A stretch of DNA of 64,000 nt from Pirellula sp. (GCA_037440405.1 JBBIUE010000005.1:28660-92659); one strand, 5' to 3'; positions 1 through 41,560 are shown, counted from the stretch's first letter. Notes: generated by a model from the sequence alone, not told the origin. Made by a program: numbers and translations.

Positions 1-414
1 CTGTTCCAAAGCGCGGTTCAGCAACGCGCGGATTTGCGTCTGTTCGGAAACGTCGGATTCGTCCAGCATTTCTGGAATGGAATTCAGCTCGATCTGGTCG
101 GAACTACCTCCGAGAGCAGACGGGAAACGCTCGTTGCGTCGAAGGGCGTCGATCAATTTATGACGAGTCAAGGACCACAGCCAGGCACGGAAACTACCCG
201 ACTTGCCTGAAGGTTGATAGCGATCGATCGAGCGGGCTACTGCGAAGAAGATTTCTTGAACGACATCGCCAATATCTTGTTCAAGGACTCCATTTCTCCT
301 GCACCAATACTGAATCAGCGGGCGGTATAGACTGACGAACTCGGGCCACGCCGCGCTGTCTGACTGACGAATTCGCGAAACGAGACTATATCGCGTTACA
401 CTGGATGAATCCAT
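1..414 (-). CDS. ECF-type RNA polymerase sigma-70 family factor, N-terminal part only (gene runs off the window start)
   Basis: My own reverse-strand translation from the ATG (412-414 on +) gives MDSSSVTRYSLVSRIRQSDSAAWPEFVSLYRPLIQYWCRRNGVLEQDIGDVVQEIFFAVARSIDRYQPSGKSGSFRAWLWSLTRHKLIDALRRNERF... This fits the sigma-70 region 2 pattern of ECF factors (DVVQEIF ... FRAWL..lTRhklID). It is absent from the ORF track because its stop lies outside the window. Confidence 0.8.
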   Translation of the reverse strand, partial: MDSSSVTRYSLVSRIRQSDSAAWPEFVSLYRPLIQYWCRRNGVLEQDIGDVVQEIFFAVARSIDRYQPSGKSGSFRAWLWSLTRHKLIDALRRNERFPSALGGSSDQIELNSIPEMLDESDVSEQTQIRALLNRALEQ

Positions 415-588
415 GCAATCTCCCCGTCGGTCTTGCAATCACGCCTGGTTTGACACTCAGCGCCAGCTACTTTCCAAAAGGCTCCAATGCTCGGAAACTC
501 ACCTGCTGTCACACAGCGTTCGATTACTTAAAAAGGACCGATTGATCTGTATTAGAATAGGACATCACTCAAGGGAAGTCACTCGTTT

Positions 589-3500
589 ATGTTAAGTGCA
601 AACTGCCCCACGGAACAAGAGCTTCGCGATTACATTATAGGTCGACTCGGTGAGCGTGACTTGGAACCGATCAACCAGCATGTACTCGCATGTACTACCT
701 GCGAAAACACGATCACACGACTGGAGCAGGATTCGGATACCTTGGTTGAATTGCTGAGAAAGACGGACGTTCCTGAGGTGATGATTGATCCAAAAACAGA
801 TGGTCGCCAGCCTCGTGGAAACGAGGACCGGAAGGCAAACAAGGCTTTTCTACCAGAGCTTCCCAAAGCTTTAGGTCAATACGAGCTGTTATCGATTTTG
901 GGCCACGGCGGCATGGGAGCCGTTTATTTGGCTCGCCATCAGAGCTTGGATAAAAAGGTAGCGGTGAAGATTCTTCCTCCCCTACCGTCCACCAATGGTG
1001 AGTTTGTAGCTCGATTCCAACGCGAAATGCGAACCGCAGGCAAGCTCGATCATCCTGCCATCGTTCGGACGACGGATGCCGGTGAACAAGAGGGCTTCCA
1101 CTTTCTAGTCATGGAAGTCATTGATGGTTGGAATTTGAGTCAAATCGCTAGCCTGGAAGGATGCTTGAGAGTAGCGGATGCTTGCGAGCTGATCCGGCAG
1201 GCGGCGATCGGACTTGCCTACGCTCATGAGAAAGGCATTGTCCATCGAGATATCAAGCCTTCCAATTTAATGCTGGATCGGGAAAAGAAGGTCCGCATTC
1301 TCGATTTTGGGCTGGCGCAGGTAGGTTTTTGGGATTCGGAGTATGCCGAAATCACGACGGTTGGTCAGCTGATGGGAACGCTGGACTACATGGCACCGGA
1401 GCAAGCGGAACGTGGTGGAGCAGTCGATTATCGGGCTGATCTGTATTCACTTGGAGCGACTTTGTTTCGATTGCTGACTGGCAGGCCGCCATTGGCTCCT
1501 GCGCCCGACCTTTCACCCCTCGAAAAGCTTCGATTGCTCGCGACATCGAAGGCTCCCCGACTCCGATCGCTAATCCCCTCTGCGTCTCAACCCCTGTCTG
1601 AGGTCGTTGATGCCTTGCTATCGCGCAATCCCTCACAGCGTCCGGCAAGCGCCATTCATGTAGCAGAATCACTAGAGCCATTCTGCCGCGACGCTGATCT
1701 GGCAACGCTCCTCCAGCGAGCAGCCGCTCAGCCTCCTCGTGAAGATTCGGCAAGGAATATCCGACCTCGGCTACGCCGCAGTTTGAAACAAGGTGAACAC
1801 GAATGGAACACAGAGGAAGACGCAAAACCTTCCCATTTTCAAGACATGAACCATCCACTTGGTGGTCGAACTCGTTCCCCGTGGCGAACTGTTTTAGTCG
1901 CTTTGCTCACCGGTGCGTTCAGCATGATTTTCGCGGGCATTCTCTTCATCCTGGAGACAAGCAAAGGGAGCCTAGTCATTACCTCCGAAGTCGATGCACA
2001 CATCAAGCTATTACGGCACGACGAAACAGGAGAAGCAAAAGACCTGGGTGACATCGTTATCACGCCAGGTGCCCAAGTGACGCGACTTAAAAGCGGTCGC
2101 TATGAAATCATTCTCGACGGCCCCAGTGACGCATTCACGATCAACAACGGGGCGTTCTCCATCCGCAATGGGGAAACCGTCATCGCAACGATCACTCCCA
2201 AATTGGACTTCGCCTCGGGCTCCAATCCGCCAATCGCACAGCCGGCCTTATCACTAGCGACAAACGAGGTCGCGAACCCTCAACAAAACCCTTCGCGCCC
2301 ACCTGAAGCGACGTATCAAGGGAGAACACTGCAAGAGTGGTTGCAATCTCTTCAAGTGGAGCGCGACGAAATGGCAATAACCGAGGCGATTCAGGCTCTA
2401 TCGTCCTTAGAGGATGCGTCGAATCGCTCTCAAGTACGTGAGCACATCATTGCGTTCCTTCGACGTTCCCCTAGCTACTTCAAGCGTTTTCCCGTTGCCT
2501 TAATAGTTCTCCACAAATGTTCAGGAGAGGAGTTTCTCAATAGTGTGAATTTGCTGATCGAGGAGATGGCAGAAAATGAACGACCGCAAGGAGTACTCGC
2601 CTTGATGCCCTTTCTGGCGGATCCTCCCGAGTATGATTCTGCCAGCATGGAACGGCTTCTGAGTCACGTTGAATCGGCGCTTCACCACGCGGATTCTGAG
2701 GAGGCCCTAAAGTTGGCTTTGGCATTCCGCAGAATCGCATTTCTCACCCCAGCGAAGAAACTCACCTCACAACTGCAGTCACGGGTTCTCTTTATCTTTT
2801 CAAATACGCCGACACTGACTTTGGAAAACTTTTGGTTGAGTCCCAAGGATTTGCCCGTCGGCGGAGAGGCGCGTCTCAGTTCCTCCAAAATTCTCCTGCA
2901 GGAAATCGCTCGTAAAGCGCTGGCGGTACTGGATACGAAGGATGCCCATTCAGAACCACCACCTGCAACGCGGGCTCTCGCCTGGATCGTGTTGCGTTTG
3001 ATGATTCAAGACGGTTACACACTCTCCGACGACGAGAAGACCCAACTCCATGCCATACTGCGATCCACCCTAGAGCAACCCGATCTATCATTAGTCGAGG
3101 TCAACATCGAAAGGGTAACGGAAGCGATCGTTCTACCGAGATGGTTGAGTGCGAACATGTTCACCATGGTTCGGCAAGATGCAAAGAGCATTGCCTTTAC
3201 CAATCTGCAGATTCTGGCACTGAACACGATCGAGCAGGCGGGACTGCAAGAGCGATTTCAGGATGAGCTGCAAACGTTCTTGAAGAAACTCGATGACATG
3301 CCCTTGTGCTTTCTCGTTCTTTTGAACGTCGATTCAAGCAAACCTCTTTCTTGGGATGGCTGGATGCGCCAGAAGGATGAAAAGATCGAAACCGACATCT
3401 TGCTTGCGCAATTCCTCTACGGACAAACGGCCTCCATGCTGGGTGAGTCGCGAGATGCCATTTACGCTCGTTTTCGAGAACGCCGGTTAGTTGATGAAAA

Positions 3501-5130
3501 GTACTATGTCCGTGATTGGATCCGCAGATACGAAAAGGATCCGACTACATCAATTGGGTTGATCAAGTTCAACCTTCCCAGAGAGCCAGATGCATTCGTC
3601 GCCGAGTTTCTACGAAAGCATTTTGCGAATTGGATAGGAACCGGTTCTCGCACGATGATAGAAAGTGAAGAGAAGCTTGAGCTTTGGATTAGATCCGCTG
3701 GAGAAGGTTTCATGCCAGCTTTCGCAGAATTGATCCTCGAATCGACCAGCGATGTTCAAGAGATACTTCTTTCTGTGGATCTTTCGAAATATTCAACTCT
3801 CATCTGCAGTGATCCATCGTCCCTGGAGCGATTATTCCAATTGAGCGGCCATCGTTTCGAGGGACAAGCGAATATCTTGGACAATGTGCGGACGAGTCGC
3901 ATGCTCCGGTTTCTACGGAATTTGTTATCGGTTCGTTCGAAGGTCGGAATGAATGGTCAGCGCGCGATCATCGAGCATTTGGGGAAGTTTCCTCAGCTTA
4001 CCGATGAGACGTTTTGGCTCAACCATCAGACTTCAAATACGAATAACATAGAATCTGCTTTCAGCTTTGCAGCGCCAATGCGAGCGGAAAAACTTCGAAG
4101 GGCCATCGAGCTTCTGGAATCGAGACAGGTCAACGATGGACGCATTCGTTGCCAGGCTTGGATGATCGCCCGACGCTACTTCAGCGAACTCACAAGTTTA
4201 CCAGAGGCGTACTCCCAAAAGCTTCAACGGGCCATTGTCGAGACTTGTTCCGAAATGGATCTGATGAACAACCGCGAAGCAATGCTAAAACTGGAATTGG
4301 TACCAAGCATCTTCGAGCCTGATACTGTTCCCGCATTCGCTCCCCAAAAACTACGCGATGTCTCCGCACTAAGCTTTCCAATCATCGATCGCGTAAAAGC
4401 TCCTCGATATCGAGATCTGCAACCGATCGCTAACGAATTTATCCTGGCATTCAATCTCTTGCTCGACCAGCCAGAACCGATCAGGCTTCAACTGACCTCA
4501 CAATTCCAAAACAAGTTAGTCCAACTGTGCGATACAGTTGAGATGGAAAGTTTTCAGCTCCATCCATCAGGGTTTGATACGACGAGTGATGGAACCGTCG
4601 ATAGCATCCAGGAACGTACGAATCGATCATGGGTTCGTTTCGTCGGAAATCGGCTGACTCATGGCGGCCCCACTGAGCCGATGGTTTTGCATAGCTTACA
4701 CCTGCAAGCAGCCGCATTGCTCCAGAGAGATGTTAACGCGCTTGCCAATCGTCCATTCGACCGATATCGCGAATCAGAGCAAAAAAGGATTCGGGAGATT
4801 CAACCTAGAGACACCCTATCGATTTTTATTCCCGGAATTCTGCCGCAGAGTGGCGATCCGCCGGTTCTGCAGGCAGGAACGAAGCCGCCCGTCATCGGGT
4901 ATCCTGTCGTCGTAACCAAAGCGGGAACAATCGAGCTTCCGATTTTGGGGACGGTTGAAACAAAGGAATTGACCCCCGACCAATTGAGAGAGAGTATCGT
5001 CAAGAAGGCAGTTGAAACCTTGGGCACCGAACCCAAAGGGATTACGGTTCAGTTTCTGGTTCGCAGCGACGAGCTAGTGGAGTTGCGCAATATCGCTGGA
5101 CCGAACCCTCTACCACCCAAAATTCCGTGA
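589..5130 (+). CDS. Membrane Ser/Thr protein kinase with N-terminal ZAS (zf-HC2) anti-sigma-like motif and C-terminal Wza-type Poly_export domain
   Basis: 1513-aa ORF; ATG 589 is preceded by AAGGGAAG. The N-terminus has C6 ... H31-x3-C35-x2-C38 (NQHVLACTTCENT, nt 679-702). Hanks kinase motifs are GHGGMGAVY, VAVKIL, HRDIKPSNLML, DFGLA and MAPEQ. There is one TM helix (WRTVLVALLTGAFSMIFAGILFILE, aa ~432-456), then a beta-rich segment and ~900 aa of helical repeat. The C-terminal ~90 aa (nt 4798-5067), IQPRDTLSIFIPG...GYPVVVTKAGTIELPILGTVETKELTPDQLRESIVKK...ITVQFLV, fit the Poly_export (PF02563) pattern. Confidence 0.9.
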   Translation: MLSANCPTEQELRDYIIGRLGERDLEPINQHVLACTTCENTITRLEQDSDTLVELLRKTDVPEVMIDPKTDGRQPRGNEDRKANKAFLPELPKALGQYELLSILGHGGMGAVYLARHQSLDKKVAVKILPPLPSTNGEFVARFQREMRTAGKLDHPAIVRTTDAGEQEGFHFLVMEVIDGWNLSQIASLEGCLRVADACELIRQAAIGLAYAHEKGIVHRDIKPSNLMLDREKKVRILDFGLAQVGFWDSEYAEITTVGQLMGTLDYMAPEQAERGGAVDYRADLYSLGATLFRLLTGRPPLAPAPDLSPLEKLRLLATSKAPRLRSLIPSASQPLSEVVDALLSRNPSQRPASAIHVAESLEPFCRDADLATLLQRAAAQPPREDSARNIRPRLRRSLKQGEHEWNTEEDAKPSHFQDMNHPLGGRTRSPWRTVLVALLTGAFSMIFAGILFILETSKGSLVITSEVDAHIKLLRHDETGEAKDLGDIVITPGAQVTRLKSGRYEIILDGPSDAFTINNGAFSIRNGETVIATITPKLDFASGSNPPIAQPALSLATNEVANPQQNPSRPPEATYQGRTLQEWLQSLQVERDEMAITEAIQALSSLEDASNRSQVREHIIAFLRRSPSYFKRFPVALIVLHKCSGEEFLNSVNLLIEEMAENERPQGVLALMPFLADPPEYDSASMERLLSHVESALHHADSEEALKLALAFRRIAFLTPAKKLTSQLQSRVLFIFSNTPTLTLENFWLSPKDLPVGGEARLSSSKILLQEIARKALAVLDTKDAHSEPPPATRALAWIVLRLMIQDGYTLSDDEKTQLHAILRSTLEQPDLSLVEVNIERVTEAIVLPRWLSANMFTMVRQDAKSIAFTNLQILALNTIEQAGLQERFQDELQTFLKKLDDMPLCFLVLLNVDSSKPLSWDGWMRQKDEKIETDILLAQFLYGQTASMLGESRDAIYARFRERRLVDEKYYVRDWIRRYEKDPTTSIGLIKFNLPREPDAFVAEFLRKHFANWIGTGSRTMIESEEKLELWIRSAGEGFMPAFAELILESTSDVQEILLSVDLSKYSTLICSDPSSLERLFQLSGHRFEGQANILDNVRTSRMLRFLRNLLSVRSKVGMNGQRAIIEHLGKFPQLTDETFWLNHQTSNTNNIESAFSFAAPMRAEKLRRAIELLESRQVNDGRIRCQAWMIARRYFSELTSLPEAYSQKLQRAIVETCSEMDLMNNREAMLKLELVPSIFEPDTVPAFAPQKLRDVSALSFPIIDRVKAPRYRDLQPIANEFILAFNLLLDQPEPIRLQLTSQFQNKLVQLCDTVEMESFQLHPSGFDTTSDGTVDSIQERTNRSWVRFVGNRLTHGGPTEPMVLHSLHLQAAALLQRDVNALANRPFDRYRESEQKRIREIQPRDTLSIFIPGILPQSGDPPVLQAGTKPPVIGYPVVVTKAGTIELPILGTVETKELTPDQLRESIVKKAVETLGTEPKGITVQFLVRSDELVELRNIAGPNPLPPKIP

Positions 5131-5364
5131 GAATCGGCTTCTGAGCATTAGGTGGAGAAGGAATTGCTGACGTGATGAGGCGCGGAGCAACTACCTCTCA
5201 TCGAACAATCCTGATCCAAGTTGAGACAGTCGAGATAGCGAGCACGGACTATACGAACTGCGTGAGACACGCGAACGCACAAAACCGCAGCAGGTTGCAG
5301 CAGCACTTTTTCGCGCATCGTCAGGCCGTGATTGATCCCAAGCAGAGTCACTTGGGACTCCAAG

Positions 5365-6276
5365 TTATTCTCCTGAGTTGATGATTTCTCGTCTGAGAGT
5401 TCTTAGAAGGAACCACAGATTCTTTGCATATCTGGGGAAGAGTCGCTTGGGATCGGTACACGCGCGATATAGCCACTCGAGTCCGATGATCTGGAGGAAA
5501 CGAGGCGCGCGTTTGGCGGTGCCCGCGACGAAATCGAACGAGGCTCCCAGTTGGATGTTGATTGGTACGCCAAGTTGTTTGAAGTTTTCAGCGATCCAGA
5601 GTTCTCCTTTGGGCTGTCCAAAAGCTACGAGCAAAATATCGGGACGGGCTGAACGGATGCGTTGATTTATCTCCTCTAAATCGTCCTTCGTCCAGGTGCG
5701 GAAGGGAGGCGAGTGGACTCCGGCGACGTGGAGACCTGGGTAAAGTTGTTGCAGTTTCTCGGCAGCCGATTGAGCAACTCCTTCCGCGCCCCCGAGAAAG
5801 TAAACCGAATGTCCTTTTCGAGCGGCCTGTTCACAGATTCGAAAGATCAAATCCGAACCAGCAACTCGCTCGGGAAGTGGGTGGGACTCTAGCTTGGATC
5901 GCCACAGGATCGGCATTCCGTCACAGAGTACCAAGTCTGCCAAGCACGTGGCTTGTTGAAGTTGGCGATCTCGTTCGCGGAGCATCACAAAGTTAAGGTT
6001 TGCAGTTATGACAAACGAAGGTTGGGCGATGGAGATCTGATGATCCATCCACCGCAAAGTCTCATCCATATTGACCACAGCAAAATCGATGTCCCAAATT
6101 CTACAACGTTGAATTTCGATGGAGCTTGGCTCGGCAGACGAGGACTCGTTGCGAACTGGTCCCACGTACAGAGGTCCGAGGGGAACTGCGGTGTTGACAT
6201 TCGTGTCGAGCATGATTTCTCTTGGTGTTTCGCTATTAAAAATTTCCCCAGAAGACGTGCGAGAGCGACGGGGCAT
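5365..6276 (-). CDS. WecB/TagA/CpsF family glycosyltransferase
   Basis: 303-aa ORF with an ATG start. Blocks FVITANLNFVMLRERD, LVLCDGMPILW, RVAGSDL, VYFLGGAEGVAQSAAEKL..YPGL.VAG, RPDILLVAFGQPKGELW, QLGASFDFVAGTAKRAP and GLEWLYR..DPKRL.PRY match the family signature as I recall it. Confidence 0.85.
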   Translation of the reverse strand: MPRRSRTSSGEIFNSETPREIMLDTNVNTAVPLGPLYVGPVRNESSSAEPSSIEIQRCRIWDIDFAVVNMDETLRWMDHQISIAQPSFVITANLNFVMLRERDRQLQQATCLADLVLCDGMPILWRSKLESHPLPERVAGSDLIFRICEQAARKGHSVYFLGGAEGVAQSAAEKLQQLYPGLHVAGVHSPPFRTWTKDDLEEINQRIRSARPDILLVAFGQPKGELWIAENFKQLGVPINIQLGASFDFVAGTAKRAPRFLQIIGLEWLYRACTDPKRLFPRYAKNLWFLLRTLRREIINSGE

Positions 6277-12814: not shown

Positions 12815-14245
12815 CTACTTCGGTTGCGCTTTCGTCGCCTTCTTGGGTTCGGTTTTTGGCATCACGGTTTTGCTACGCTTGGGAAATGGTGCCGACTCGA
12901 CCCAATCAGGGATACCACCGGCAGCCTCGATTTCGGTCATCGACAGAACAGTGAGTCCTGGAAGAAGAGAGTTGCATTTCTTGACGATAGCGCGATGGCG
13001 ACTGGGATCGACTATCAGAGCACATGGGAAGTGGCGCTCGGCGGCCCGGTGGGTATACCGAATCTCTTCGATATTCTGAACCAAGTTCGACGACGCGCGA
13101 TCGCGAGCCATTCGAGCTTCAACTTCCGGTGCCAAAATCAAACCTCGAACGAAATCCGTGTCTCGACGAAACCGAGCACACAACCAGTTGGCAAGTACCA
13201 ATCGGCAGTTGGCAATCGTTTCGTCAAGTTGGTCGGCTGCGTCCCAGTTATACTTCAAAGTGGATAGGATTTGCTGAACTGGGCGAACGGTGCAGCGATC
13301 CTCGACCAACTGATGGAAAACAGTGTGGACATTCGCCACGGTCGAGCTGCGATCAATGACGTCTTCGATCAGTGAAGGGCAAATCAACCGTGTTTGTTGA
13401 ACAAGTTTGACCGTTTGATCGAACGTGTAGAATCGAGCTAAGTGTCGGACGAGGAGTGACCGGAAAAACGAGAAGAAATACTCGGACGAAGACATCGTTG
13501 GTACGTTGCGACCTTCCGAAGTAACTTCAACCGACTCGTCGATGAAAAAGCCCGGAGCCATCCAAATCGCATCGCGAGTTTCATGAATGCAAGCAGAAGA
13601 ATCCTCGCTGAGATCGCACTCTTCCAGCAAAGCAAAAGCGAATTTCTGTCTGGGAGGAAAATAACCAGCACCCAATTCAAGCGCATGCCAACGAAAATGC
13701 GCTGCGTGGGGAGAAATCTCCTCACACTCATGGATGCGGATGGCAGGGAGAGAAAATCCGTATTCGTCGGAGAGTTGGTGTCGAATCTTTGCTAAACGTG
13801 TGGGAAGCGATACTGCGCCATCTCGAAGGCGTGCGAACAACTCTGTTCCAAGCATTAACTCCATCTGACGATTGTCGCGGACAGCGGCCGGTTCAGGTTC
13901 TGCTTCCGTGGAATCCGCAACGTTTTCGGTCGAAGTCGGTTCGACATCGGAAAACAAAGGCTCTAGACTCTCGTCAGAACAGGAAATGGAAACGACCTGG
14001 GGAAAGAGAACGATTGTTTCTTTTCCCCCTCCAGGCTTCCTGCGATTGCGTTCTTCTTCTCTCATGGAAGAGTACCAATTGCTCTCGTCGTAGTCGTCGA
14101 GTCGCTCAGCATCCGTCATGCAGATGCCGCCATCGACCAAACCAACCAGACGACCGATAAATCGATGGCCGCCAAAGGTGAATACGGTAACGCACCGACC
14201 TACATAGCGTTTGAGGGTCTTGTCTAAGTCTTCTGACAGATACAC
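12815..14245 (-). CDS. Soluble FlhA/SctV C-terminal (FHIPEP cytoplasmic) domain homologue with LSm-like N-terminal domain
   Basis: 476-aa ORF with a GTG start. aa ~10-50 (LKRYVGRCVTVFTFGGHRFIGRLVGLVDGGICMTDAERL) are Sm-like, followed by an acidic linker. aa ~128-450 are colinear with FlhA-C blocks: RLAKIRHQLSDEYGFSLPAIRIHECEEISPHAAHFRWHALELGAGY; VHTVFHQLVEDRCTVRPVQQILSTL; ALIVDPSRHRAIVKKCNSLLPGLTVLSMTEI. No hydrophobic TM segment is present. The tail is Lys-rich. Confidence 0.75.
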   Translation of the reverse strand: MYLSEDLDKTLKRYVGRCVTVFTFGGHRFIGRLVGLVDGGICMTDAERLDDYDESNWYSSMREEERNRRKPGGGKETIVLFPQVVSISCSDESLEPLFSDVEPTSTENVADSTEAEPEPAAVRDNRQMELMLGTELFARLRDGAVSLPTRLAKIRHQLSDEYGFSLPAIRIHECEEISPHAAHFRWHALELGAGYFPPRQKFAFALLEECDLSEDSSACIHETRDAIWMAPGFFIDESVEVTSEGRNVPTMSSSEYFFSFFRSLLVRHLARFYTFDQTVKLVQQTRLICPSLIEDVIDRSSTVANVHTVFHQLVEDRCTVRPVQQILSTLKYNWDAADQLDETIANCRLVLANWLCARFRRDTDFVRGLILAPEVEARMARDRASSNLVQNIEEIRYTHRAAERHFPCALIVDPSRHRAIVKKCNSLLPGLTVLSMTEIEAAGGIPDWVESAPFPKRSKTVMPKTEPKKATKAQPK

Positions 14246-16219: not shown

Positions 16220-17050
16220 ATGAACCGCGTCGCATTCGTCAGTCTATTGTTATCCATTGCTTTTTTTTCTGCGAAGTCCGATGTGCATGGCCAGGAATGG
16301 GCAAAGAAACGCCTTGAGGAGTCACCGCGACACCAGGAATGGGTTGAGCTTTCGCATGGCAATCGCAAGGTGCAGTCGTTTGTGATGTACCCCGAGGTGA
16401 AGGACAAAGCTCCCGCTGTGATCGTGATTCACGAAATTTTTGGCTTGTCCGAGTGGGTCAAGAGCATGTGCGATCAGTTCGCCGAGATCGGATGTATTGC
16501 GATTGCACCGGACTTGATCTCGGGCATGGGAAAGGATGGTGGTGGCACCGAGTCGTTTGAAGGTCGCGAAATGACTCGCGCCGTATCGACTCTGCCACCC
16601 GATCAAGTTACGGCGGATTTGAATGCTGCTTATGAATACCTATCCGACTTGCCGGCGTGCAATGGAAAGGTAATCGTTGCGGGATTCTGCTGGGGAGGAA
16701 CGCAGTCCTTTCGCTATGCCGCGAACAACTCCAAGCTAAAAGCAGCGATGGTCTTTTACGGTTCGGGACCGGACGACAAGGAGGCGATCGAGCGAATTGC
16801 GTGCCCAATCCTTGGCTTCTATGGCGAGAACGACAATCGAGTCAATGCAACTATCGAACGCTCGAAAGATCTGATGCAAGCTGCTGGTAAGCAATATGAT
16901 CCAGTGATTTATCCGGGTGCCGGTCACGGATTCATGAGAGCCGGAGAAGAACCCGAGGCCAATGTCGCTGACAAGACCATGTATGCTGCAAATCGAGACG
17001 GCAGGAAAGCTGCATGGGACAGGATTCGAACGTATCTTGGTTCCCTTTGA
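16220..17050 (+). CDS. Dienelactone hydrolase family protein (secreted)
   Basis: 276-aa ORF with signal peptide MNRVAFVSLLLSIAFFSAKSDVHG. Motifs are PAVIVIHEIFGL, IAPDL, GFCWGG (nucleophile Cys) and YPGAGHGF. Confidence 0.85.
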   Translation: MNRVAFVSLLLSIAFFSAKSDVHGQEWAKKRLEESPRHQEWVELSHGNRKVQSFVMYPEVKDKAPAVIVIHEIFGLSEWVKSMCDQFAEIGCIAIAPDLISGMGKDGGGTESFEGREMTRAVSTLPPDQVTADLNAAYEYLSDLPACNGKVIVAGFCWGGTQSFRYAANNSKLKAAMVFYGSGPDDKEAIERIACPILGFYGENDNRVNATIERSKDLMQAAGKQYDPVIYPGAGHGFMRAGEEPEANVADKTMYAANRDGRKAAWDRIRTYLGSL

Positions 17051-17117
17051 GAACGTCCCCGTACACATCGCTTATCGCTTTTTCCCACCCAACTTGCCTT
17101 CCAATTTGAATGTCGCC

Positions 17118-20100
17118 ATGCAATCTCACCCATCCTATTTAGAATTTGTTCGTGCGAATTCGTTTTCACCTTCCAAGCCATGGAACTCCATTACAGTTGC
17201 GACGACATTCTCATTCGGTGGTCGACTGATTGGATGCATCGCTTGCTCGATTTGGGCCGCATTCTCTCTGAATGCCGCATTGGCGATCGAAGACCAGAAA
17301 TCGCTGCACTCGTTCGAAGTCATCAAGTTGACCGATGTTTACTTCGCCGAAGGAGCGAACGCGGGAGACCTGGACGGCGATGGGATCCCCGACGTCGTCT
17401 ACGGTCCCTATTGGTGGAAAGGTCCCGACTACCAGGAACGCCATGAAATCTATCCGCCCGTGCCACAGAATATGGAAGGCTATGCCGACCACTTTTTCAA
17501 TTGGATTCACGATTTTGATGGCGATGGGTGGAGTGACATTTTCGTGGTCGGTTTTCCAGGAACGCCGGGATACGTCTATCAGAATCCTGGCCCCAACGGT
17601 TGGACGAGTCATTGGAAGAAGCATCGGGTGTTCGACGCTGTATCCAATGAAGCGCCCGTTTTGAAGAACATCGTGGGGGACGACCGTCCCGAGTTGATCT
17701 GCGCATTCGACGGCTATTTTGGGTTCGCGACGATCGACTGGGACAACCCTTTTGCCAAGTGGCAGTTCCATCCGATTTCGGAAAAAATTGCTCCGGTTCC
17801 TTTTGGGCACGGTCTTGGTGTTGGCGATGTCAACGGAGACGGTCTTCACGACTTGCTTTGGTCAGATGGATGGTTCGAGCAGCCGAAGGACAATGCTCTT
17901 TCATCACGATGGCAGCTTCACAGTCACCGCTTCACGACAGCCTACGGTGGAGCCGAAATGTACGCTTACGATGTCAATGGTGACGGACGGAATGACATCA
18001 TCACGAGCCAAGCCGCGCACGATTTTGGATTGGCTTGGTATGAACAAGTCCGTGACGGGGACGATATTCAGTTTCGCGAACAATTAATCATGGGAGACCG
18101 CCCAGAGAAGAGCAAATATGGTCTCGTTTTTAGTGAATTGCATTCCGTTGCGTTAGCCGACGTGAACGGCGATGGATTGCTGGACATCCTGACCGGCAAA
18201 ACGTATTACTCGCACCATCGCTCCAGTCCGATGTGGGACGCAGGGGCTGTCGTTTATTGGTTCCAACTCGATCGCAGTGGCGGCGAAATTGACTGGATTC
18301 CTTTCCAAGCTGCGGCAGACACAGGGATTGGTCGCCAGATATCCATGGTGGATGTAAACAATGACGGTCTATTGGACATCGTTGTTGGAGGCATGAAGGG
18401 CGCCCATGTTCTGGTTCATCGCGTCACAGAGGTTGATGAGGCCGTGTGGCAAGCAGCCCAACCCAAGAAGTTTGAGGCATCAACCAAAAGCGCTTTGCAA
18501 ACCGAAAGTCTTCGTCTTACGAATCGCGGGAGAGTAGCCGGGGCAGTCGAAGGAGAGAGCTTTCGAATTCATTCGCTTACCGGAGGAGACGCCGGTCCAC
18601 AGGATATGAGCGGCTTTTCTCGCGGGCGATGGAGCAATCAATCGCAATTATGGTGGACGGGTGGAAAGCCGGGAGATCGACTCGATCTCCAGTTTCAAGT
18701 GCCTGACGAAGGGAAGTACACGATCGCTGCCGGCTTCACGAAAGCTCGCGACTATGGCATGGCTCAGGTACTGATCGACGGTGAGCCTCTCACAGAACCC
18801 ATCGATTTCTTCAATTACCCTGACGTCATCCACACCGGTTTGATTCGCCTTGGCGAACGATCGCTCCGAGAAGGCAACCACACCTTTTCTTTGAAGATCA
18901 CCGGAGCCAACCCTGCCGCTCTCCCTGCTTATATGGTGGGGCTCGATTTTATCCTCGTTAGGGATGAGCAAGGTAACGCCGTTCGGATGACGCGATCCCG
19001 TGATGAACAGTTATCGATTCAAGCAGAGACAGGCGTCGAACCAACTCTTAGTTTCGAGACGGGCGATTTGAGAGGATGGTCCGTCGAGGGAAATGCTTTT
19101 GCAAAACAGCCTGTTCGCGGAGATACCGTCTTTGCTCGCCGCAAAGACATGAAGAGCAATCACGCTGGCGACTTCTGGATTGGTAGTTACGAAATCGATG
19201 GCGATGCCGTTACAGGGGTTATGACATCGAATCCCTTTAAGGTAACGTCTCCTTGGGGGACGTTTCTGGTGGGCGGTGGAAGTTCGCCAGAGACTCGCGT
19301 TGAAATCGTCGAGGCCGAAACGAACAAGGTTCTACTGAAAGCGAATGGCAGAAACGTCGAGAACATGGAACGAGCAGTCGTCGATCTGCGTTCTCACGTC
19401 GGAAAGTCGATTTACATTCGGATTGTCGATCAGAGCACTGGGGGGTGGGGCCACATCAACTTTGATGATTTCCGATTTCATGATGATCAACCGGGCGAAC
19501 CCACCAAGTCATTTGTCGAACTTGTTCCTGATGAGTATCCGTTCGCGGGACTGGCGGCCGAGGATGCTGCAAAGGCGATGGTGCTCCCTGATGGTTTTCA
19601 AGCGATTGTCGGAGCGAGTGAGCCACACGTTTTGCAGCCGATCGCCATGGCGATCGATGATCGAGGTCGCGTTTGGATCGCAGAGGCCTACGAGTATCCC
19701 GTTCGTGCGGCCGACGGCAAGGGTCGCGATCGTATCCTGATTTTTGAAGACACCAATGGCGACGGTCGCCTCGATAAGAGAACTGTGTTCACGGAAAACT
19801 TGAACTTGGTCAGTGGCTTGGAGCTCGGTTTCGGGGGTGTGTGGATTGGAGCGGCTCCATATCTCCTTTTTATTCCGGATCGAAATCGTGATGATGTGCC
19901 TGATGGACCACCGGAAGTCTTGCTGGATGGCTGGGGATATCAGGACACCCATGAGACACTGAATGCATTCATCTGGGGGCCGGATGGCTGGTTATACGGG
20001 TGCCACGGCGTATTCACGCACTCAAGGGTCGGCAAGCCTGGAACACCGAACGAGAAGCGGCAACCCATCAACGCCGGCATCTGGAGATATCATCCCACCC

Positions 20101-22967
20101 GCCATGAATTCGAAGTCTTTGCTCATGGAACGAGCAATCCCTGGGGTGTTGACTTCAATGACCATGGGCAGGCATTTTGCACTGCCTGCGTCATCCCTCA
20201 CCTGTTCCACATCATTCAGGGTGGGCGCTACAACCGGCAGGCAGGTAATCATTTCAACCCGTACACCTATGATGACATTAAGACCATCGCCGACCATTTG
20301 CATTACTTGGGAGCGAATCCCCATGGTGGCAATAACAAATCCGATCAAGCAGGTGGAGGGCACGCTCACGCCGGCGCCATGATTTACCTGGGAGGAACCT
20401 GGCCCGAGCAATACCGCAATCAGATATTCATGAACAACATCCACGGCCAGCGTCTCAATGTTGACCTGCTCGAGGCAAATGGTTCCGGTTATGTCGGGAA
20501 GCACGGTCCTGATTTCCTTTTGACTCGAGATGCAGCCTCACAGATTTTGAACTTGCGCTATGGCCCCGACGGTCAAGCCTGGATGATCGACTGGTATGAC
20601 ATGCAAGCCTGCCACTTGAATGATCCGGCAAAGCACGACCGCAGCAATGGCCGTATCTATAAGATCGTTTTTGGCCAACCCAAAAAGGTCGAAGTAGATC
20701 TGGCTACTTGGGATGACCTTCGCCTGGCGCGATGTGTTGAAGAGACGAATGATTGGTACGTTCGGCACGCGCGAAAACTCCTTCAGGAGCGGGCCGCCAG
20801 TCGACCGATTGCGTCTGCGGCGATTGAGTACCTTCGAAAGGTCGCCACAACCCACGCCGATGACACTAGGCGTTTGCGTGCGATCTGGGCGCTTCACGTC
20901 GCAAATGCGCTTCCTTCCGATTTCTTGGCGGAGCTCTTCAAGGATACAAGTCCGTATGTACGCGGTTGGGCGATCCAACTGGGTTGCGAGCAGGAGCAAT
21001 CGCTCACGCCAAGGCTATTGTCCATGTTAGAGGCGCAAGCGATTGGCGATGATTCGCCGATCGTCCGACTTTACCTGGCATCGGCTGCTCAACGTCTTCC
21101 GTCTGCCAAACGATGGACGATTCTCGAAGGTTTGATTCAACATTCGCAGGATAAACAGGACCACAATCTACCGCTTATGTACTGGTATGCGGCGGAACCA
21201 CTCGTCGACGTGGACCTTGGCAGGGCTCTTAAGTTCGCTTTGCAGTGTTCTGAGCATCAGCCAATGGTGCGCGACTTCCTGATGCGACGCATCGCCAACT
21301 CAGAAGGGGAAGGAGCCATTGAGTCGTTGGTAGCCGCCTTGGGATCAACTACGGAGCCCCAGACGTTGATCGCGTTCCTCGAAGCGATTCGCTCCGCACT
21401 GCGTGGCCAGCGTCAGGTGGCCCAGCCGAAGAGTTGGCCTGCTGCCTTTGCGGCATTGCAGCGAAGCGATACTCATGTCCGATTGCAAGCAGCGTCGCTG
21501 GGGGCCGTATTTGGTGACCCAAAAGCGAAATCACAATTGGAGGACTTTGCTCGGGACACGAGTTTGCCGCCGTCGGCTCGCCAGGAGGCAGCGACTACGC
21601 TGCTTACAATCCGCGACGCCGAATTGGCGTCAAAGCTGGAAACCTGGTTGGATGATTCGGTTCTGCGAGTCGTTGCGCTTCGCGGCATGGCAGACATCGA
21701 GCTGCCAAATCTCGCCGTCGCTGCGGTCGAGCGGTATGCGCAGTTGGAATCTGCCGAGCGCCGCCAATTGATTGCTACATTGAGTTCTCGTAAGAACTAC
21801 GCTCGGACGTTATTGGAAGCGATCGAGAGTAAGCATGTCGCCGCGACGGACCTTCCAGCTGATTTGGTTCGTCAAATGCTCGCCTTCGGAGACGCAGAGA
21901 TTGAAAAGATGCTTTCTTCTGCCTGGGGTATGGTGCGGGAAACGGAAGCGGATAAACGTCAATTGATCGACGAGTATTCCCAACTCGTTCAGAACGACGA
22001 CCTTCCCGCTCCTGACTTGACTCTGGGTCGGGCTATCTTCGTTAAGACTTGCCAGCAGTGCCACGTGCTCTACGGCGTTGGAGGCCAAATCGGACCCGAC
22101 CTGACCGGCTCGAATCGATCCAATCTCGAATACTTGCTCAGCAATATCGTCGATCCCAGTGCTGTCATGGCGAAGGAGTATCAACCTACGATCTTTCTTA
22201 CGGACGGCGGGCGGACCATCGTTGGACTCATCCGCGAGGAGAATGCAAAGTCGATTACGATCCAAACCTCCACGGAATTGATCGATCTTCCGGTGGATGA
22301 GGTAGTGGATCGAAAACTGAGCGAGAAATCGATGATGCCCGATGATCAATTGCGTCCGTTTTCGAAACATGAACTGCGATCTCTCTTCGCTTACCTGGCG
22401 GATAAACAACAGCACCCGCTTTTGTTGACGCGCGATACCGCGCCGCTCATGTTCAACAGAACGGACCTGACAGGTTGGCAGGGGAACTCGGAACTATGGT
22501 CGGTCGAAGATGGTCAGATTGTTGGTCGAACCAAAGGTCTGTCGGTCAATGAATTTCTCGTCAGCGATGTTTACGCCACTGATTTCCGGCTGGTCTTAGA
22601 AGTCAAGCTGACGCCAAACTCAGAGAATTCTGGAATCCAGTTTCGAAGCGAGCTGCTCGACCACGGTGACGTGAAGGGGTACCAAGCCGACATCGGCCAA
22701 GGTTGGTGGGGCAAGCTGTATGAAGAGCACGGTCGCGGTCTGCTTTGGGAGAAATCCGGTGAGGAGTTCGTCAAGCATAACGACTGGAACCGATACGAGA
22801 TTGTCGCGAAAGGACATCATATTGAAACGTTTATCAACGGTCAGAAGTGTGTCGATATCGTCGATGATCATGGAGCGACCGGAGGCCGATTCGCGATCCA
22901 GTTGCATGCCGGCGGACCCATGGAGATTCGCGTGAAGAATATCTCGATCGAACCCTATTCCGAATGA
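17118..22967 (+). CDS. Giant multidomain protein: FG-GAP propeller + CBM-like + LamG-like + PQQ-type 'membrane-bound dehydrogenase' propeller + HEAT repeats + cytochrome c (CxxCH) + DUF1080
   Basis: The start is set at ATG 17118 (MQSHP...) because the ORF-track start at 16962 overlaps the previous gene. Six FG-GAP-like DxDGDG repeats: GDLDGDGIPDVV, FDGDGWSDIF, GDVNGDGLHDLL, YDVNGDGRNDII, ADVNGDGLLDIL, VDVNNDGLLDIV. The dehydrogenase block is MVLPDGFQAIVGASEPHVLQPIAMAIDDRGRVWIAEAYEYP...ILIFEDTNGDGRLDKRTVF...GTSNPWGVDFNDHGQAF. Heme site is CQQCH at nt 22050-22064. The C-terminal LTGWQG..WSVEDGQIVG...NSGIQFRS...FAIQLH fits DUF1080. Confidence 0.9.
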   Translation: MQSHPSYLEFVRANSFSPSKPWNSITVATTFSFGGRLIGCIACSIWAAFSLNAALAIEDQKSLHSFEVIKLTDVYFAEGANAGDLDGDGIPDVVYGPYWWKGPDYQERHEIYPPVPQNMEGYADHFFNWIHDFDGDGWSDIFVVGFPGTPGYVYQNPGPNGWTSHWKKHRVFDAVSNEAPVLKNIVGDDRPELICAFDGYFGFATIDWDNPFAKWQFHPISEKIAPVPFGHGLGVGDVNGDGLHDLLWSDGWFEQPKDNALSSRWQLHSHRFTTAYGGAEMYAYDVNGDGRNDIITSQAAHDFGLAWYEQVRDGDDIQFREQLIMGDRPEKSKYGLVFSELHSVALADVNGDGLLDILTGKTYYSHHRSSPMWDAGAVVYWFQLDRSGGEIDWIPFQAAADTGIGRQISMVDVNNDGLLDIVVGGMKGAHVLVHRVTEVDEAVWQAAQPKKFEASTKSALQTESLRLTNRGRVAGAVEGESFRIHSLTGGDAGPQDMSGFSRGRWSNQSQLWWTGGKPGDRLDLQFQVPDEGKYTIAAGFTKARDYGMAQVLIDGEPLTEPIDFFNYPDVIHTGLIRLGERSLREGNHTFSLKITGANPAALPAYMVGLDFILVRDEQGNAVRMTRSRDEQLSIQAETGVEPTLSFETGDLRGWSVEGNAFAKQPVRGDTVFARRKDMKSNHAGDFWIGSYEIDGDAVTGVMTSNPFKVTSPWGTFLVGGGSSPETRVEIVEAETNKVLLKANGRNVENMERAVVDLRSHVGKSIYIRIVDQSTGGWGHINFDDFRFHDDQPGEPTKSFVELVPDEYPFAGLAAEDAAKAMVLPDGFQAIVGASEPHVLQPIAMAIDDRGRVWIAEAYEYPVRAADGKGRDRILIFEDTNGDGRLDKRTVFTENLNLVSGLELGFGGVWIGAAPYLLFIPDRNRDDVPDGPPEVLLDGWGYQDTHETLNAFIWGPDGWLYGCHGVFTHSRVGKPGTPNEKRQPINAGIWRYHPTRHEFEVFAHGTSNPWGVDFNDHGQAFCTACVIPHLFHIIQGGRYNRQAGNHFNPYTYDDIKTIADHLHYLGANPHGGNNKSDQAGGGHAHAGAMIYLGGTWPEQYRNQIFMNNIHGQRLNVDLLEANGSGYVGKHGPDFLLTRDAASQILNLRYGPDGQAWMIDWYDMQACHLNDPAKHDRSNGRIYKIVFGQPKKVEVDLATWDDLRLARCVEETNDWYVRHARKLLQERAASRPIASAAIEYLRKVATTHADDTRRLRAIWALHVANALPSDFLAELFKDTSPYVRGWAIQLGCEQEQSLTPRLLSMLEAQAIGDDSPIVRLYLASAAQRLPSAKRWTILEGLIQHSQDKQDHNLPLMYWYAAEPLVDVDLGRALKFALQCSEHQPMVRDFLMRRIANSEGEGAIESLVAALGSTTEPQTLIAFLEAIRSALRGQRQVAQPKSWPAAFAALQRSDTHVRLQAASLGAVFGDPKAKSQLEDFARDTSLPPSARQEAATTLLTIRDAELASKLETWLDDSVLRVVALRGMADIELPNLAVAAVERYAQLESAERRQLIATLSSRKNYARTLLEAIESKHVAATDLPADLVRQMLAFGDAEIEKMLSSAWGMVRETEADKRQLIDEYSQLVQNDDLPAPDLTLGRAIFVKTCQQCHVLYGVGGQIGPDLTGSNRSNLEYLLSNIVDPSAVMAKEYQPTIFLTDGGRTIVGLIREENAKSITIQTSTELIDLPVDEVVDRKLSEKSMMPDDQLRPFSKHELRSLFAYLADKQQHPLLLTRDTAPLMFNRTDLTGWQGNSELWSVEDGQIVGRTKGLSVNEFLVSDVYATDFRLVLEVKLTPNSENSGIQFRSELLDHGDVKGYQADIGQGWWGKLYEEHGRGLLWEKSGEEFVKHNDWNRYEIVAKGHHIETFINGQKCVDIVDDHGATGGRFAIQLHAGGPMEIRVKNISIEPYSE

Positions 22968-38393: not shown

Positions 38394-38404
38394 GGCTCTT
38401 GCCT

Positions 38405-41560
<3,156 letters not shown>

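Follow-up and report, generated by a model that had tools for sequence, protein, structure and literature searches.

An ECF sigma factor of Pirellula paired with a Hanks-type kinase that carries a predicted anti-sigma-like head and a Wza-D1-type tip

In a 64,000-nucleotide stretch of DNA from Pirellula sp. (GCA_037440405.1 JBBIUE010000005.1:28660-92659; called the window here), the gene of an ECF sigma factor lies beside a gene that we read, with a probability of roughly 0.55, as encoding its cognate regulator. The regulator is a single-pass membrane protein in which a predicted class-I ZAS head is fused to an active Hanks-type kinase, and a mechanism of sequestration and phosphorylation is proposed for the pair.

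Among the main signalling systems of bacteria are the ECF sigma factors, whose regulators are commonly placed under one of two labels, “anti-sigma factor” or “Ser/Thr kinase”; the locus family described here has both in one polypeptide. Linkage between sigma factors and kinases is already known. What appears to be new, judging from sequence, is the anti-sigma-type head on the kinase itself. This suggests that planctomycetal sigma factors regarded as “kinase-regulated” contain a hidden anti-sigma as well. Should the head bind the sigma factor, a revised model would be needed for the kinase-linked groups of this phylum, one with the kinase controlling the escape of the sigma factor from the kinase's own anti-sigma domain. 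The arrangement would then also offer synthetic circuits a compact sigma switch that is controlled by phosphorylation and possibly orthogonal. Finally, the Wza D1 tip on the solenoid of an inner-membrane kinase may sense the envelope or the machinery of polysaccharide export.

The Locus and Its Family

The features of the locus are listed in Table 1. An earlier note on this DNA, made from the sequence alone, had described a 1513-residue gene and a partial ECF sigma gene diverging from a short spacer. The coordinates and length of the large gene are as claimed, and the sigma gene is confirmed by its domain matches, which include TIGR02937 (E=1.6e-14) besides the one in the table.

Table 1. Coordinates of the gene pair, the protein domains, and the neighbouring features in the window.
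Feature	Position	Strand	Remarks
ECF sigma gene, 5' part (aa 1-138 of 194)	1..414	-	Sigma70_r2 E=1e-13; remainder past window edge
Divergent intergenic region, 174 bp	415..588	.	Between sigma and kinase genes
Conserved DNA motif TGTCACACAGCGTTCGAT	507..524	+	82 nt upstream of kinase start codon
Gene of the 1513-aa protein (anti-sigma-like head, Hanks kinase, solenoid, Poly_export), with stop codon	589..5130	+	ORF
Predicted ZAS-type (class I) anti-sigma-like head, aa 1-59	589..765	+	C6, H31, C35, C38, then conserved PDTLVELL
Hanks-type Ser/Thr kinase domain, RD type, aa 96-362	874..1674	+	Pkinase, PknB-type NCBIfam model
Single transmembrane helix, aa 433-455	1885..1953	+	Lone hydropathy peak of the protein
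Membrane-proximal all-beta domain (Ig-like sandwich), aa 456-538	1954..2202	+	AlphaFold2
Extracytoplasmic alpha-helical solenoid (HEAT/ARM-like), ~830 aa, aa 574-1404	2308..4800	+	AlphaFold2, Foldseek
Wza-D1-type Poly_export (PES) domain, C-terminal, aa 1403-1503	4795..5097	+	Pfam, AlphaFold2, Foldseek
WecG glycosyltransferase gene	5365-6276	-	E=8e-61; converges on kinase gene 3' end

Full-length orthologues of the 1513-residue protein, about 60 in number and with 32-40% identity, are found in Pirellulaceae. Their hosts include strain SH449, Roseiconus lacunae, and Aureliella helgolandensis, which are cultured hosts of family members.

The pairing of the kinase protein with an ECF sigma factor, proposed earlier for this one locus, is borne out across relatives. 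Among 66 related loci with enough upstream DNA, a homologous ECF sigma gene lies within 1.5 kb of the kinase gene at 63, and it is divergently upstream at 62. All three cultured species' loci have the pair. No separate conserved anti-sigma gene is seen in these three loci, and the genes downstream of the kinase are different at each. Species-representative genomes contain 350 more related stretches. In our reading, the locus is one member of a large paralogous planctomycetal family (Pirellulales, Planctomycetales) of ECF sigma regulators.

The Anti-Sigma-Like Head

The large protein had been said to open with the zf-HC2/ZAS pattern of zinc-binding anti-sigma factors. This holds at the level of the family profile, but the window's own head has no zf-HC2 match. 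The Pfam model zf-HC2 (PF13490) gives no match to it at E<=1 when the whole protein is searched, or at E<=0.1 for the head alone, and the NCBIfam “antisigma” model reaches just E=0.065. When 40 related heads are searched, zf-HC2 matches 38 of them, with a best value of 4e-8.

A profile was built from the 40 related heads and searched against 177,635 PDB sequences. At E<1e-3 it matches ECF anti-sigma factors exclusively, namely DdvA (6.4e-5), RslA (1.2e-4), ChrR (2.2e-4), and RsiW (9.4e-4), though the E values, at about 1e-4, and the scores, at 22-26 bits, are modest. The alignment with ChrR keeps a 1:1 register with its zinc site (8-54 = 8-54), so that C6 of the head falls on ChrR residue 6. 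This residue is presumably the zinc ligand His6.

The earlier note had raised the conservation of the N-terminal Cys and His residues. None of C6, H31, C35, and C38 varies among 20 orthologues (31-38% identity) or among the 40 diverse related heads. About 114 of 120 relatives have the HxxxCxxC motif, which is H31-x3-C35-x2-C38 in the window, and the invariant C6, about 25 residues upstream of it, is the candidate for the fourth ligand. One property counts against the main reading: the conserved head is short, at about 57 residues, where a class-I ZAS domain has a four-helix fold and binds zinc and sigma domains 2 and 4.

A kinase that bears an anti-sigma-like head is therefore supported as a family-wide feature, given the share of relatives with the motif and of loci with a divergent sigma gene. 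For the window itself, a ZAS-type (class I) anti-sigma-like domain is predicted, with its support at the level of the family profile and not of the single protein.

The Kinase and the Extracytoplasmic Arm

The head is followed by a complete Hanks Ser/Thr kinase, as had been proposed. Pkinase covers residues 98-353 with E=6.7e-47, and a PknB-type NCBIfam model gives 1.3e-77. The motifs of the domain are G105-G110, K127, E146, HRD at 219-221, N226, DFG at 239-241, and APE at 269-271, and the activation loop contains the threonines T256, T257, and T264. All of the catalytic residues and these threonines are invariant in 20 orthologues. Judged by its residues, the catalytic site is intact.

The protein has one hydrophobic segment, at about residues 433-455, which confirms that it crosses the membrane once. 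Because Arg residues precede this helix, the N-terminus would lie inside and the C-terminus outside. The best explanation is that the head and the kinase are both cytoplasmic.

The outside part had been described as about 900 helical residues. This is corrected here to a beta domain of 84 residues, then a disordered linker, and then about 830 helical residues. AlphaFold2 predicts eight strands in the beta domain, for which no significant match was found in Pfam or the PDB. The domain is common to the paralogous kinases, and it is conserved in relatives that share just residues 1-620. The solenoid is modelled by AlphaFold2 with about 45 helices and a mean pLDDT of 81.7. Foldseek relates it to karyopherins and CAND1 with a TM of about 0.2, which is a generic solenoid resemblance.

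The Partner Sigma Factor

The full sigma factor is P0164, a protein of 194 residues that is identical over the 138 residues encoded in the window. Its precomputed domains are Sigma70_r2, Sigma70_r4, and Sigma70_ECF, and the window sigma is 54-60% identical to the sigma factors adjoining orthologous kinases. None of the named reference ECF proteins is present in the list of its homologues. The earlier label “ECF43-like” is not supported, since ECF43 is proteobacterial, and kinase-linked sigma factors of planctomycetes fall into ECF59-62 and ECF217 (PMC7826278, PMC8999054).

The sigma factor could be inactive until it is phosphorylated, as in the EcfP/PknT type, with the zinc head recruiting it but not inhibiting it. 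Kinase-linked ECF sigma factors of Vibrio and Xanthomonas are activated by phosphorylation (PMC8999054, PMC13147305), and a degenerate DAED has been reported for kinase-activated ECFs (PMC8999054, PMC8103513). The DAED position in region 2.2 is degenerate across the present family too. In paralogues it is mostly [A/S/T][T/A/S]AD, that is, Ser/Thr-rich and acid-poor. The sigma factors also have (near-)invariant Thr7 and Ser10 close to the N-terminus and a (near-)invariant GGS[S/T] in the linker. These features of the sigma factors count for the main reading as well. However, the subfamily of the window retains [D/E]xxD in region 2.2: the sequence is DIGD in the window and [D/E][IVL]xD in its orthologues, with two acidic residues kept and no conserved Ser/Thr, and an EcfP-type activation site is not evident at these positions, a point against the main reading too. 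The proteobacterial kinases that act in this way do so without such a head, and every solved relative of the head is an inhibitor that occludes core-binding surfaces of its sigma (PMC6061681). Docking without inhibition is thus unlikely, but it deserves some weight.

Alternatively, the head could be a conventional anti-sigma factor that is inactivated by proteolysis or by RsrA-like thiol oxidation, while the kinase has other substrates. In its single-pass layout and its large outside domain the protein is like DdvA and RsiW, and we take the C-H-C-C ligand set of the head to be the same as that of RsrA. On the other hand, the fusion of head and kinase and the pairing with a sigma factor are kept in hundreds of paralogues whose outside domains differ, and an independent kinase and head are hard to explain for this reason. 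Conserved site-1 or site-2 protease genes are also absent from the three cultured-species loci. These points make an unrelated kinase a doubtful explanation.

Co-variation also counts for the main reading. The distances among sigma factors follow those among heads (r=0.56, Mantel p=0.001) better than those among kinase domains (r=0.39), and the partial correlation between sigma and head, with the kinase domain controlled, is 0.50; co-duplication alone can yield such co-variation between adjacent genes.

The Poly_export Domain

The assignment of the C-terminus to Poly_export is borne out by several methods. With a Pfam cut-off of 28 bits, the domain scores 29.2 bits in the whole protein and 34.4 bits when isolated, and it is found in 18 of 18 orthologues. 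A PDB profile search with the C-terminal domain matches solely Wza/OPX. The AlphaFold2 model of the domain has a pLDDT of 85.4. In a Foldseek search with this model, the top 10 PDB matches are all Wza/OPX with a probability of 1.0, and the probability falls to 0.05 after them. The best-fitting matches have an rmsd of 2.6-3 A over about 98 columns.

The earlier note had likened this end of the protein to part of an export channel, a likeness that is not supported. OPX proteins are defined by a Poly_export domain with at least one SLBB domain after it and by an N-terminal secretion or lipoprotein signal (PMC9603273). The 1513-residue protein has no SLBB match in Pfam at E<=1, and it ends about 10 residues past the D1 fold. 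Having Wza D1 alone, C-terminal on an inner-membrane protein and without SLBB, it falls outside the OPX proteins as so defined. A lipoprotein signal and the Wza_C domain are likewise absent in Pfam and NCBIfam searches of the protein, as are BY-kinase and Wzz domains, its sole kinase domain being Hanks-type.

These absences bear on another possibility, in which the protein mainly serves a Wzx/Wzy-type export machine in a structural or regulatory role, as a Hanks analogue of Wzc, and its pairing with the sigma factor is secondary. The C-terminal domain is genuinely a Wza D1 fold, and D1 forms the ring in OPX proteins and touches the apex of the PCP/Wzc octamer (PMC12819527). Moreover, a WecG glycosyltransferase gene adjoins in the window. 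Its convergence on the 3' end of the kinase gene, where the earlier note placed a WecB/TagA/CpsF glycosyltransferase, is correct, but the implied link is not: a WecG homologue is absent beside the kinase at 12 of 12 orthologous loci, and therefore WecG is outside the system. Annotation of the window to about 41.6 kb revealed no genes for polysaccharide export. Downstream genes vary by locus, and the conserved partner is the sigma factor. A role as an export component is accordingly improbable.

Least credible of all is a Cys/His head that serves as a generic zinc finger or caps the kinase structurally, without sigma control, its adjacency reflecting kinase-sigma phosphorylation; the window head is under Pfam thresholds and the PDB matches are modest, but the significant ones are all ECF anti-sigmas with the zinc-ligand register correct, zf-HC2 matches nearly all related heads, and head divergence follows sigma divergence.

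Related Systems

The head profile finds its best PDB match (E=6.4e-5) in DdvA/DdvS from Myxococcus xanthus (PDB 8rlz, 8rot). DdvA has a ZAS domain of about 70 residues that binds its sigma, one transmembrane helix, and about 900 residues outside (PMC6061681). The window protein is like it in having an N-terminal cytoplasmic ZAS-type head, one transmembrane helix, and a large outside part, and in being encoded beside its ECF sigma. In contrast, DdvA is without a kinase between head and membrane, and its outside domain is CHAT protease-like, where the window protein has a solenoid and Poly_export. The genes of DdvA and DdvS are co-directional and translationally coupled, whereas the window pair is divergent.

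An ECF sigma gene beside that of a transmembrane Hanks kinase is also found in ECF43 (EcfP/PknT in Vibrio, EcfK/PknS in Xanthomonas), ECF59-62, and ECF217. A degenerate DAED in sigma region 2.2, as described for kinase-activated ECFs (PMC8999054, PMC8103513), occurs in the present family, with Ser/Thr in the paralogous subfamilies and not in the window sigma. ECF59-62 and ECF217 belong to the same phylum as the locus, and in Rhodopirellula to the same family. Kinase-linked groups are typically without co-encoded anti-sigma factors (PMC7826278). The window kinase differs in that it bears an anti-sigma-type head itself, a separate anti-sigma gene being absent, and the window sigma differs in that it retains D..D in region 2.2.

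A further parallel is found in M. tuberculosis. PknB, a Hanks kinase, phosphorylates the ZAS anti-sigmas RshA and RseA and thereby frees the ECF sigmas SigH and SigE (PMC8999054). SigH is itself phosphorylated in the linker between sigma2 and sigma4 (PMC13147305), the region where the window family has its invariant GGS[S/T]. In mycobacteria, however, the kinase and the anti-sigma are separate and the kinase is global, while one polypeptide acting on one sigma is proposed for the window.

The last 100 residues of the window protein have the D1 fold (PF02563) of Wza/OPX. As in Wza-Wzc, an inner-membrane kinase with a long helical periplasmic part is found next to D1. Unlike Wza/OPX, the window protein is without SLBB, lipid anchor, and outer-membrane helix (PMC9603273). 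D1 is N-terminal on an outer-membrane lipoprotein in Wza, but C-terminal on an inner-membrane protein in the window. Lastly, Wzc is a BY-kinase, whereas the window kinase is Hanks-type and export genes are unlinked.

A Proposed Mechanism and a Conserved DNA Motif

In the mechanism that we propose, the head would bind zinc and tether the sigma factor to the membrane, in the manner of DdvA's ZAS domain. The signal would be a periplasmic event sensed through the solenoid and D1 arm, perhaps by altered oligomerisation. This event would switch the kinase on by autophosphorylation of its activation loop. The kinase would then phosphorylate its target, either the docked sigma or else the head together with its linker, and the sigma would be released, activated, or both. 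The freed sigma is a candidate driver of the kinase gene through a conserved upstream motif, which would form a feedback loop.

A bolder version can be imagined, although we regard it as quite unlikely. The D1 tip would dock onto or co-assemble with an export machine, at the OPX ring or the PCP apex, read the assembly or occupancy of the conduit, and convert this into ECF transcription. More broadly, planctomycetal kinase-regulated ECFs would need two keys, hidden anti-sigma sequestration and phosphorylation, and not phosphorylation by itself.

The upstream motif has the family consensus aAAAAtgc-TGTCACrC-N5-tCG[T/A]T, and in the window it may act as promoter or operator for the kinase gene. 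No sigma-70-type promoter or terminator was found in the 174-bp intergenic region. The TGTCAC and CGTT boxes are just 8 nt apart, and the canonical ECF geometry is not matched. The motif is nearly identical among paralogues, which argues against sigma-specific recognition. TGTCAC is present in 59 of 62 intergenic regions, compared with 3.5 expected, and a position matrix of the motif matches 66 of 83 loci exactly once each, always on the kinase strand and 50-320 bp upstream. The match in the window is the sole one within its 64 kb.

Architecture of the kinase protein

The protein encoded beside the ECF sigma gene joins a putative anti-sigma head to a Hanks kinase. Its head (residues 1-59) contains C6, H31, C35 and C38, which led the earlier note to assign it to zf-HC2. 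Taken singly, the window sequence misses that Pfam model (no match at E<=1 for the whole protein or at E<=0.1 for the isolated head), and the NCBIfam anti-sigma model gives E=0.065. The assignment holds for its relatives, however, since 38 of 40 diverse heads individually match zf-HC2 (best 4e-8).

The Cys/His pattern singled out in the earlier note is fully conserved: all four residues are invariant in 20 orthologues and in the 40 diverse heads. HxxxCxxC, 25 residues after a cysteine, occurs in about 114 of the best 120 relatives; the six others are mostly N-terminally truncated fragments, plus two much longer, differently laid-out kinases. A profile of the 40 heads was searched against all 177,635 distinct PDB sequences. 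At the significance threshold of E<1e-3 it found only ECF anti-sigma factors, namely DdvA (6.4e-5), RslA (1.2e-4), ChrR (2.2e-4) and RsiW (9.4e-4); the next match was full-length DdvA (1.6e-3). The alignment with ChrR is in exact register (residues 8-54 on 8-54) and places H31, C35 and C38 on the ChrR sequence HLSLCDEC. C6 thus falls on ChrR residue 6, the fourth zinc ligand of that protein. The Cys-His-Cys-Cys ligand set matches that of RsrA. At the level of family profiles, ligand invariance, the zf-HC2 matches of related heads, the PDB matches and the ChrR register together place the head, as a divergent form, among the class-I ZAS (zinc anti-sigma) domains.

The kinase that follows is complete, as the earlier note had proposed. 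Pkinase covers residues 98-353 (E=6.7e-47), and the Gly-rich loop, K127, E146, HRD (219-221), N226, DFG (239-241) and APE (269-271) are invariant in the 20 orthologues, which share only 31-38% identity overall. The activation-loop threonines T256 and T264 are likewise invariant. By these motifs the domain is predicted to be an active RD-type Hanks kinase. There is only one hydrophobic segment, at about residues 433-455, and arginines precede it; the predicted topology is therefore N-terminus inside and C-terminus outside.

Features of the window (nucleotides) and of the 1513-aa protein (residues)
Feature	Position	Strand	Remarks
Partial ECF sigma gene	nt 414 to 1	-	First 138 codons, sigma2 domain; Sigma70_r2 E=1e-13, TIGR02937 E=1.6e-14
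Sigma-kinase spacer	nt 415-588		174 bp
TGTCAC motif, window copy	nt 507-524	+	Sole match in 64 kb
Kinase-protein ORF	nt 589-5130	+	1513 aa
WecG/TagA/CpsF-family glycosyltransferase	nt 5365-6276	-	E=8e-61; converges on kinase gene, 234-bp gap
Beta domain	aa 455-538		Eight strands (AlphaFold2)
Linker	aa 540-571		Disordered (AlphaFold2)
Helical solenoid	aa 574-1404		~830 residues, stacked helices (AlphaFold2)

A family paired with ECF sigma factors

The fusion of head and kinase, paired with an ECF sigma, is real and widespread. A one-genome-per-species scan found 350 related stretches, all from Planctomycetota, and all named relatives belong to the Pirellulaceae. Among the best 120 relatives, about 60 are full-length orthologues that share both the solenoid and the Poly_export end. 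Many others are kinases that match only over residues 1-620 (head, kinase, transmembrane helix and beta domain) and then continue into different outside regions, for example EF-hands or TPR repeats.

Loci were compared in a set of 83, made up of 80 of the 350 stretches and three loci from cultured strains (SH449, Aureliella helgolandensis and Roseiconus lacunae). Upstream sequence of 900 bp or more was available for 66 loci; in 63 of them a homologous ECF sigma lies within 1.5 kb of the kinase, and in 62 it is divergent. Several genomes carry three or four sigma-kinase pairs. No separate conserved anti-sigma gene was found in the three annotated, cultured-strain loci. In SH449, the partner sigma gene is followed after 3 bp by a gene for a 170-aa DUF1648 protein (4812-5324, minus strand, of locus L001), and the two are probably co-transcribed; neither of the other two annotated loci showed such a gene.

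In 61 pairs, the divergence of the sigma tracks that of the head (r=0.56, Mantel p=0.001) more closely than that of the kinase domain (r=0.39). The partial correlation between sigma and head, with the kinase domain controlled, is 0.50. This co-variation fits cognate partners, and we take it as weak support because linked genes that duplicate together would correlate too.

That planctomycetes link sigma factors to kinases has been recognised since 2012, as groups ECF59-62 and later ECF217 (PMC7826278, PMC8999054). In the accessible literature, no paper was found that names both zf-HC2 and Pkinase or both Poly_export and Pkinase, nor one that describes an anti-sigma-kinase fusion; an earlier mention elsewhere is possible. 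Only about 5 of the best 120 relatives carry a zf-HC2 flag in precomputed Pfam annotation, which would explain how the head could have been overlooked. The fusion bears on both the sigma-factor and the bacterial-kinase fields.

Some relatives carry several heads. Three proteins without a kinase, P0246 (390 aa), P0251 (385 aa) and P0259 (401 aa), and one with a kinase, P0249 (1310 aa), have 3-5 tandem zinc anti-sigma-like heads; in P0249 five heads are followed by the kinase and TPR repeats. Such multi-headed anti-sigma proteins could bind several sigmas simultaneously.

Proposed mechanism

Two known systems suggest how the protein may work. Of the solved structures, DdvA is the one most closely related to the head. 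Its ZAS domain of about 70 residues binds its sigma and is followed by one transmembrane helix and about 900 residues outside; the overall layout is that of the 1513-aa protein, but without the kinase (PMC6061681). The mycobacterial Hanks kinase PknB phosphorylates ZAS anti-sigmas and so frees SigH and SigE (PMC8999054). The layout of DdvA and the action of PknB on ZAS anti-sigmas lead to the proposal that a single protein does both, joining DdvA-type sigma binding to PknB-type phosphorylation.

The domain architecture, the conserved ligands and the gene pairing are observed; sigma binding, phosphorylation and a signal, as we infer them, would be ordered as follows. First, the head would keep the sigma at the membrane. 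Next, the activity of the kinase would be governed by the periplasmic arm. Finally, the kinase would phosphorylate the docked sigma, its own head and linker, or both, and the sigma would be released or activated.

The sequences of the sigmas suggest possible targets. The partner of the window kinase was found in full length among the sigma homologues as P0164 (194 aa), which is identical to the window sigma over 138 residues and has the precomputed domains Sigma70_r2, Sigma70_r4 and Sigma70_ECF. None of the ECF-group reference proteins of the literature is among the best 120 sigma homologues. In an alignment of 67 partner sigmas with the window sigma, the threonine of an N-terminal TRxSL[LIV]xR (T7 in the window) is invariant and its serine (S10) is 99% conserved. 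A GGS[S/T] sequence in the sigma2-sigma4 linker (window 102-105) is nearly invariant; PknB phosphorylates M. tuberculosis SigH in this same linker (PMC13147305). T7, S10 and the GGS[S/T] linker residues are candidate phospho-acceptors.

The main rival is pure docking and activation of the EcfP type. EcfP is activated by phosphorylation and has STTA in place of the acidic DAED of region 2.2 (PMC8999054). In the partner sigmas the DAED position is degenerate, and most paralogues have [A/S/T][T/A/S]AD, which recalls STTA and suits an EcfP-type model. The model suits the window sigma less well, since its subfamily has [D/E][I/V/L]xD (DIGD in the window), with two acidic residues kept and no Ser or Thr.

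The extracytoplasmic arm

The region outside the membrane (residues 455-1513) was modelled with AlphaFold2 from 45 aligned orthologues, with a mean pLDDT of 81.7. No Pfam or PDB relatives of the membrane-proximal beta domain were found. In Foldseek, the helical part shows only a generic HEAT/ARM solenoid likeness (karyopherins, CAND1) at TM ~0.2.

The earlier note had placed a Poly_export domain at the C-terminus, and profiles and models agree. Against a Pfam cut-off of 28, Poly_export scores 29.2 bits in the whole protein and 34.4 bits in the isolated domain, and it is matched by 18 of 18 orthologous C-termini (best 7e-11). A C-terminal profile finds only Wza/polysaccharide export proteins in the PDB, weakly (E=0.03). 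The last 129 residues are modelled with a pLDDT of 85.4. The top ten Foldseek matches of this model are all Wza-type outer-membrane export proteins (OPX) with probability 1.0, among them the class-3 OPX WzaB and a Wza-Wzc complex, and the next matches fall abruptly to 0.05; the best-fitting superpose with an rmsd of 2.6-3 A over about 98 columns. Together, these results mark the domain as a genuine Wza domain 1 (D1, or PES) module. A search of a 5.8-billion-protein set with a profile of the domain was uninformative, as it returned five short fragments and missed even known orthologues.

The protein stops about ten residues past D1, and no SLBB domain follows. Since an OPX protein is defined by Poly_export and at least one SLBB domain (PMC9603273), the 1513-aa protein is not an OPX but has D1 alone. 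One relative, P0276 (660 aa), shows a minimal architecture in which zf-HC2 head and kinase are joined to Poly_export without a solenoid. This suggests that, outside the membrane, D1 is the module that is indispensable, with the solenoid as a spacer.

In OPX proteins, D1 forms a ring that touches the apex of the PCP/Wzc octamer (PMC12819527). Carried at the tip of a long solenoid, a D1 could form oligomers, attach to glycan or dock onto such export machines. No export genes linked to the kinase gene support this, and it is therefore kept as a speculative reading.

A conserved motif upstream of the kinase gene

By k-mer counting, TGTCAC occurs in 59 of 62 sigma-kinase spacers, where 3.5 are expected, and always on the kinase strand. 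The aligned motif is aAAAAtgc-TGTCACrC-N5-tCG[T/A]T(ct). TGTCACRC-N6-CGWT is present exactly once in 66 of the 83 loci, always on the plus strand and 50-320 bp before the kinase start; by our own arithmetic, chance alone would give about 0.3 matches in this amount of DNA. Four loci with no divergent sigma found or with a co-directional sigma (L021, L030, L067 and L050) have the motif as well, which thus belongs to the kinase gene. Its near-identity among paralogues argues against a private promoter for each sigma.

The TGTCAC and CGTT boxes lie 8 nt apart. CGTT is typical of ECF -10 boxes, but 8 nt is a distance that no holoenzyme of the sigma-70 family could bridge and that matches no promoter geometry known for that family. 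Read differently, the -35 element would be the A-rich box, which lies 16 nt upstream of CG[T/A]T; this puts the almost invariant TGTCAC within the spacer. TGTCACA is the -35 box of group ECF41, and the first box is thus common to both, but the ECF41 promoter is TGTCACA-N16-CGTC, so a canonical ECF41-like promoter is ruled out by a CGTT only 8 nt downstream (PMC3426412). A sigma-54 promoter is also ruled out, as the box is TGTCAC rather than TGGCAC and no TTGC box stands at the right spacing.

A regulon search with the motif in metagenome contigs gave 47 matches, which is chance level for a 16-base pattern there; only 2 adjoin a head/kinase or sigma gene. No sigma-70-type promoter or terminator was found in the window spacer, or between the kinase gene and the WecG-family gene.

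Genomic surroundings

The earlier note had linked the kinase to the WecB/TagA/CpsF glycosyltransferase that converges on it. None of the 12 orthologous loci, each covered for 4 kb or more downstream, has a homologue, which rules the gene out as a component of the system; it is a chance neighbour. In the three annotated loci from cultured strains, different genes lie downstream of each kinase.

The other neighbours in the window are scattered and typical of planctomycetes, and include a sulfatase. A 2001-aa FG-GAP/DUF7133 protein (16962-22967, plus strand) combines FG-GAP repeats, DUF7133, HEAT repeats and a C-terminal 3-keto-disaccharide hydrolase domain. At 36969-41560 (minus strand) lies a planctomycete-typical pair, a PSCyt1/PSCyt2/PSD1 protein (1051 aa) followed by a DUF1501 protein (518 aa). 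As listed, their ORFs overlap by about 120 nt, probably through an over-extended TTG start. Finally, a 476-aa ORF (12815-14245, minus strand) matches only the C-terminal half of the profile of FHIPEP, the FlhA-type export gate (positions 317-654 of 657). The space upstream is too small for the membrane domain, and the ORF may encode a free-standing FlhA-C-like protein or be what remains of a gene.
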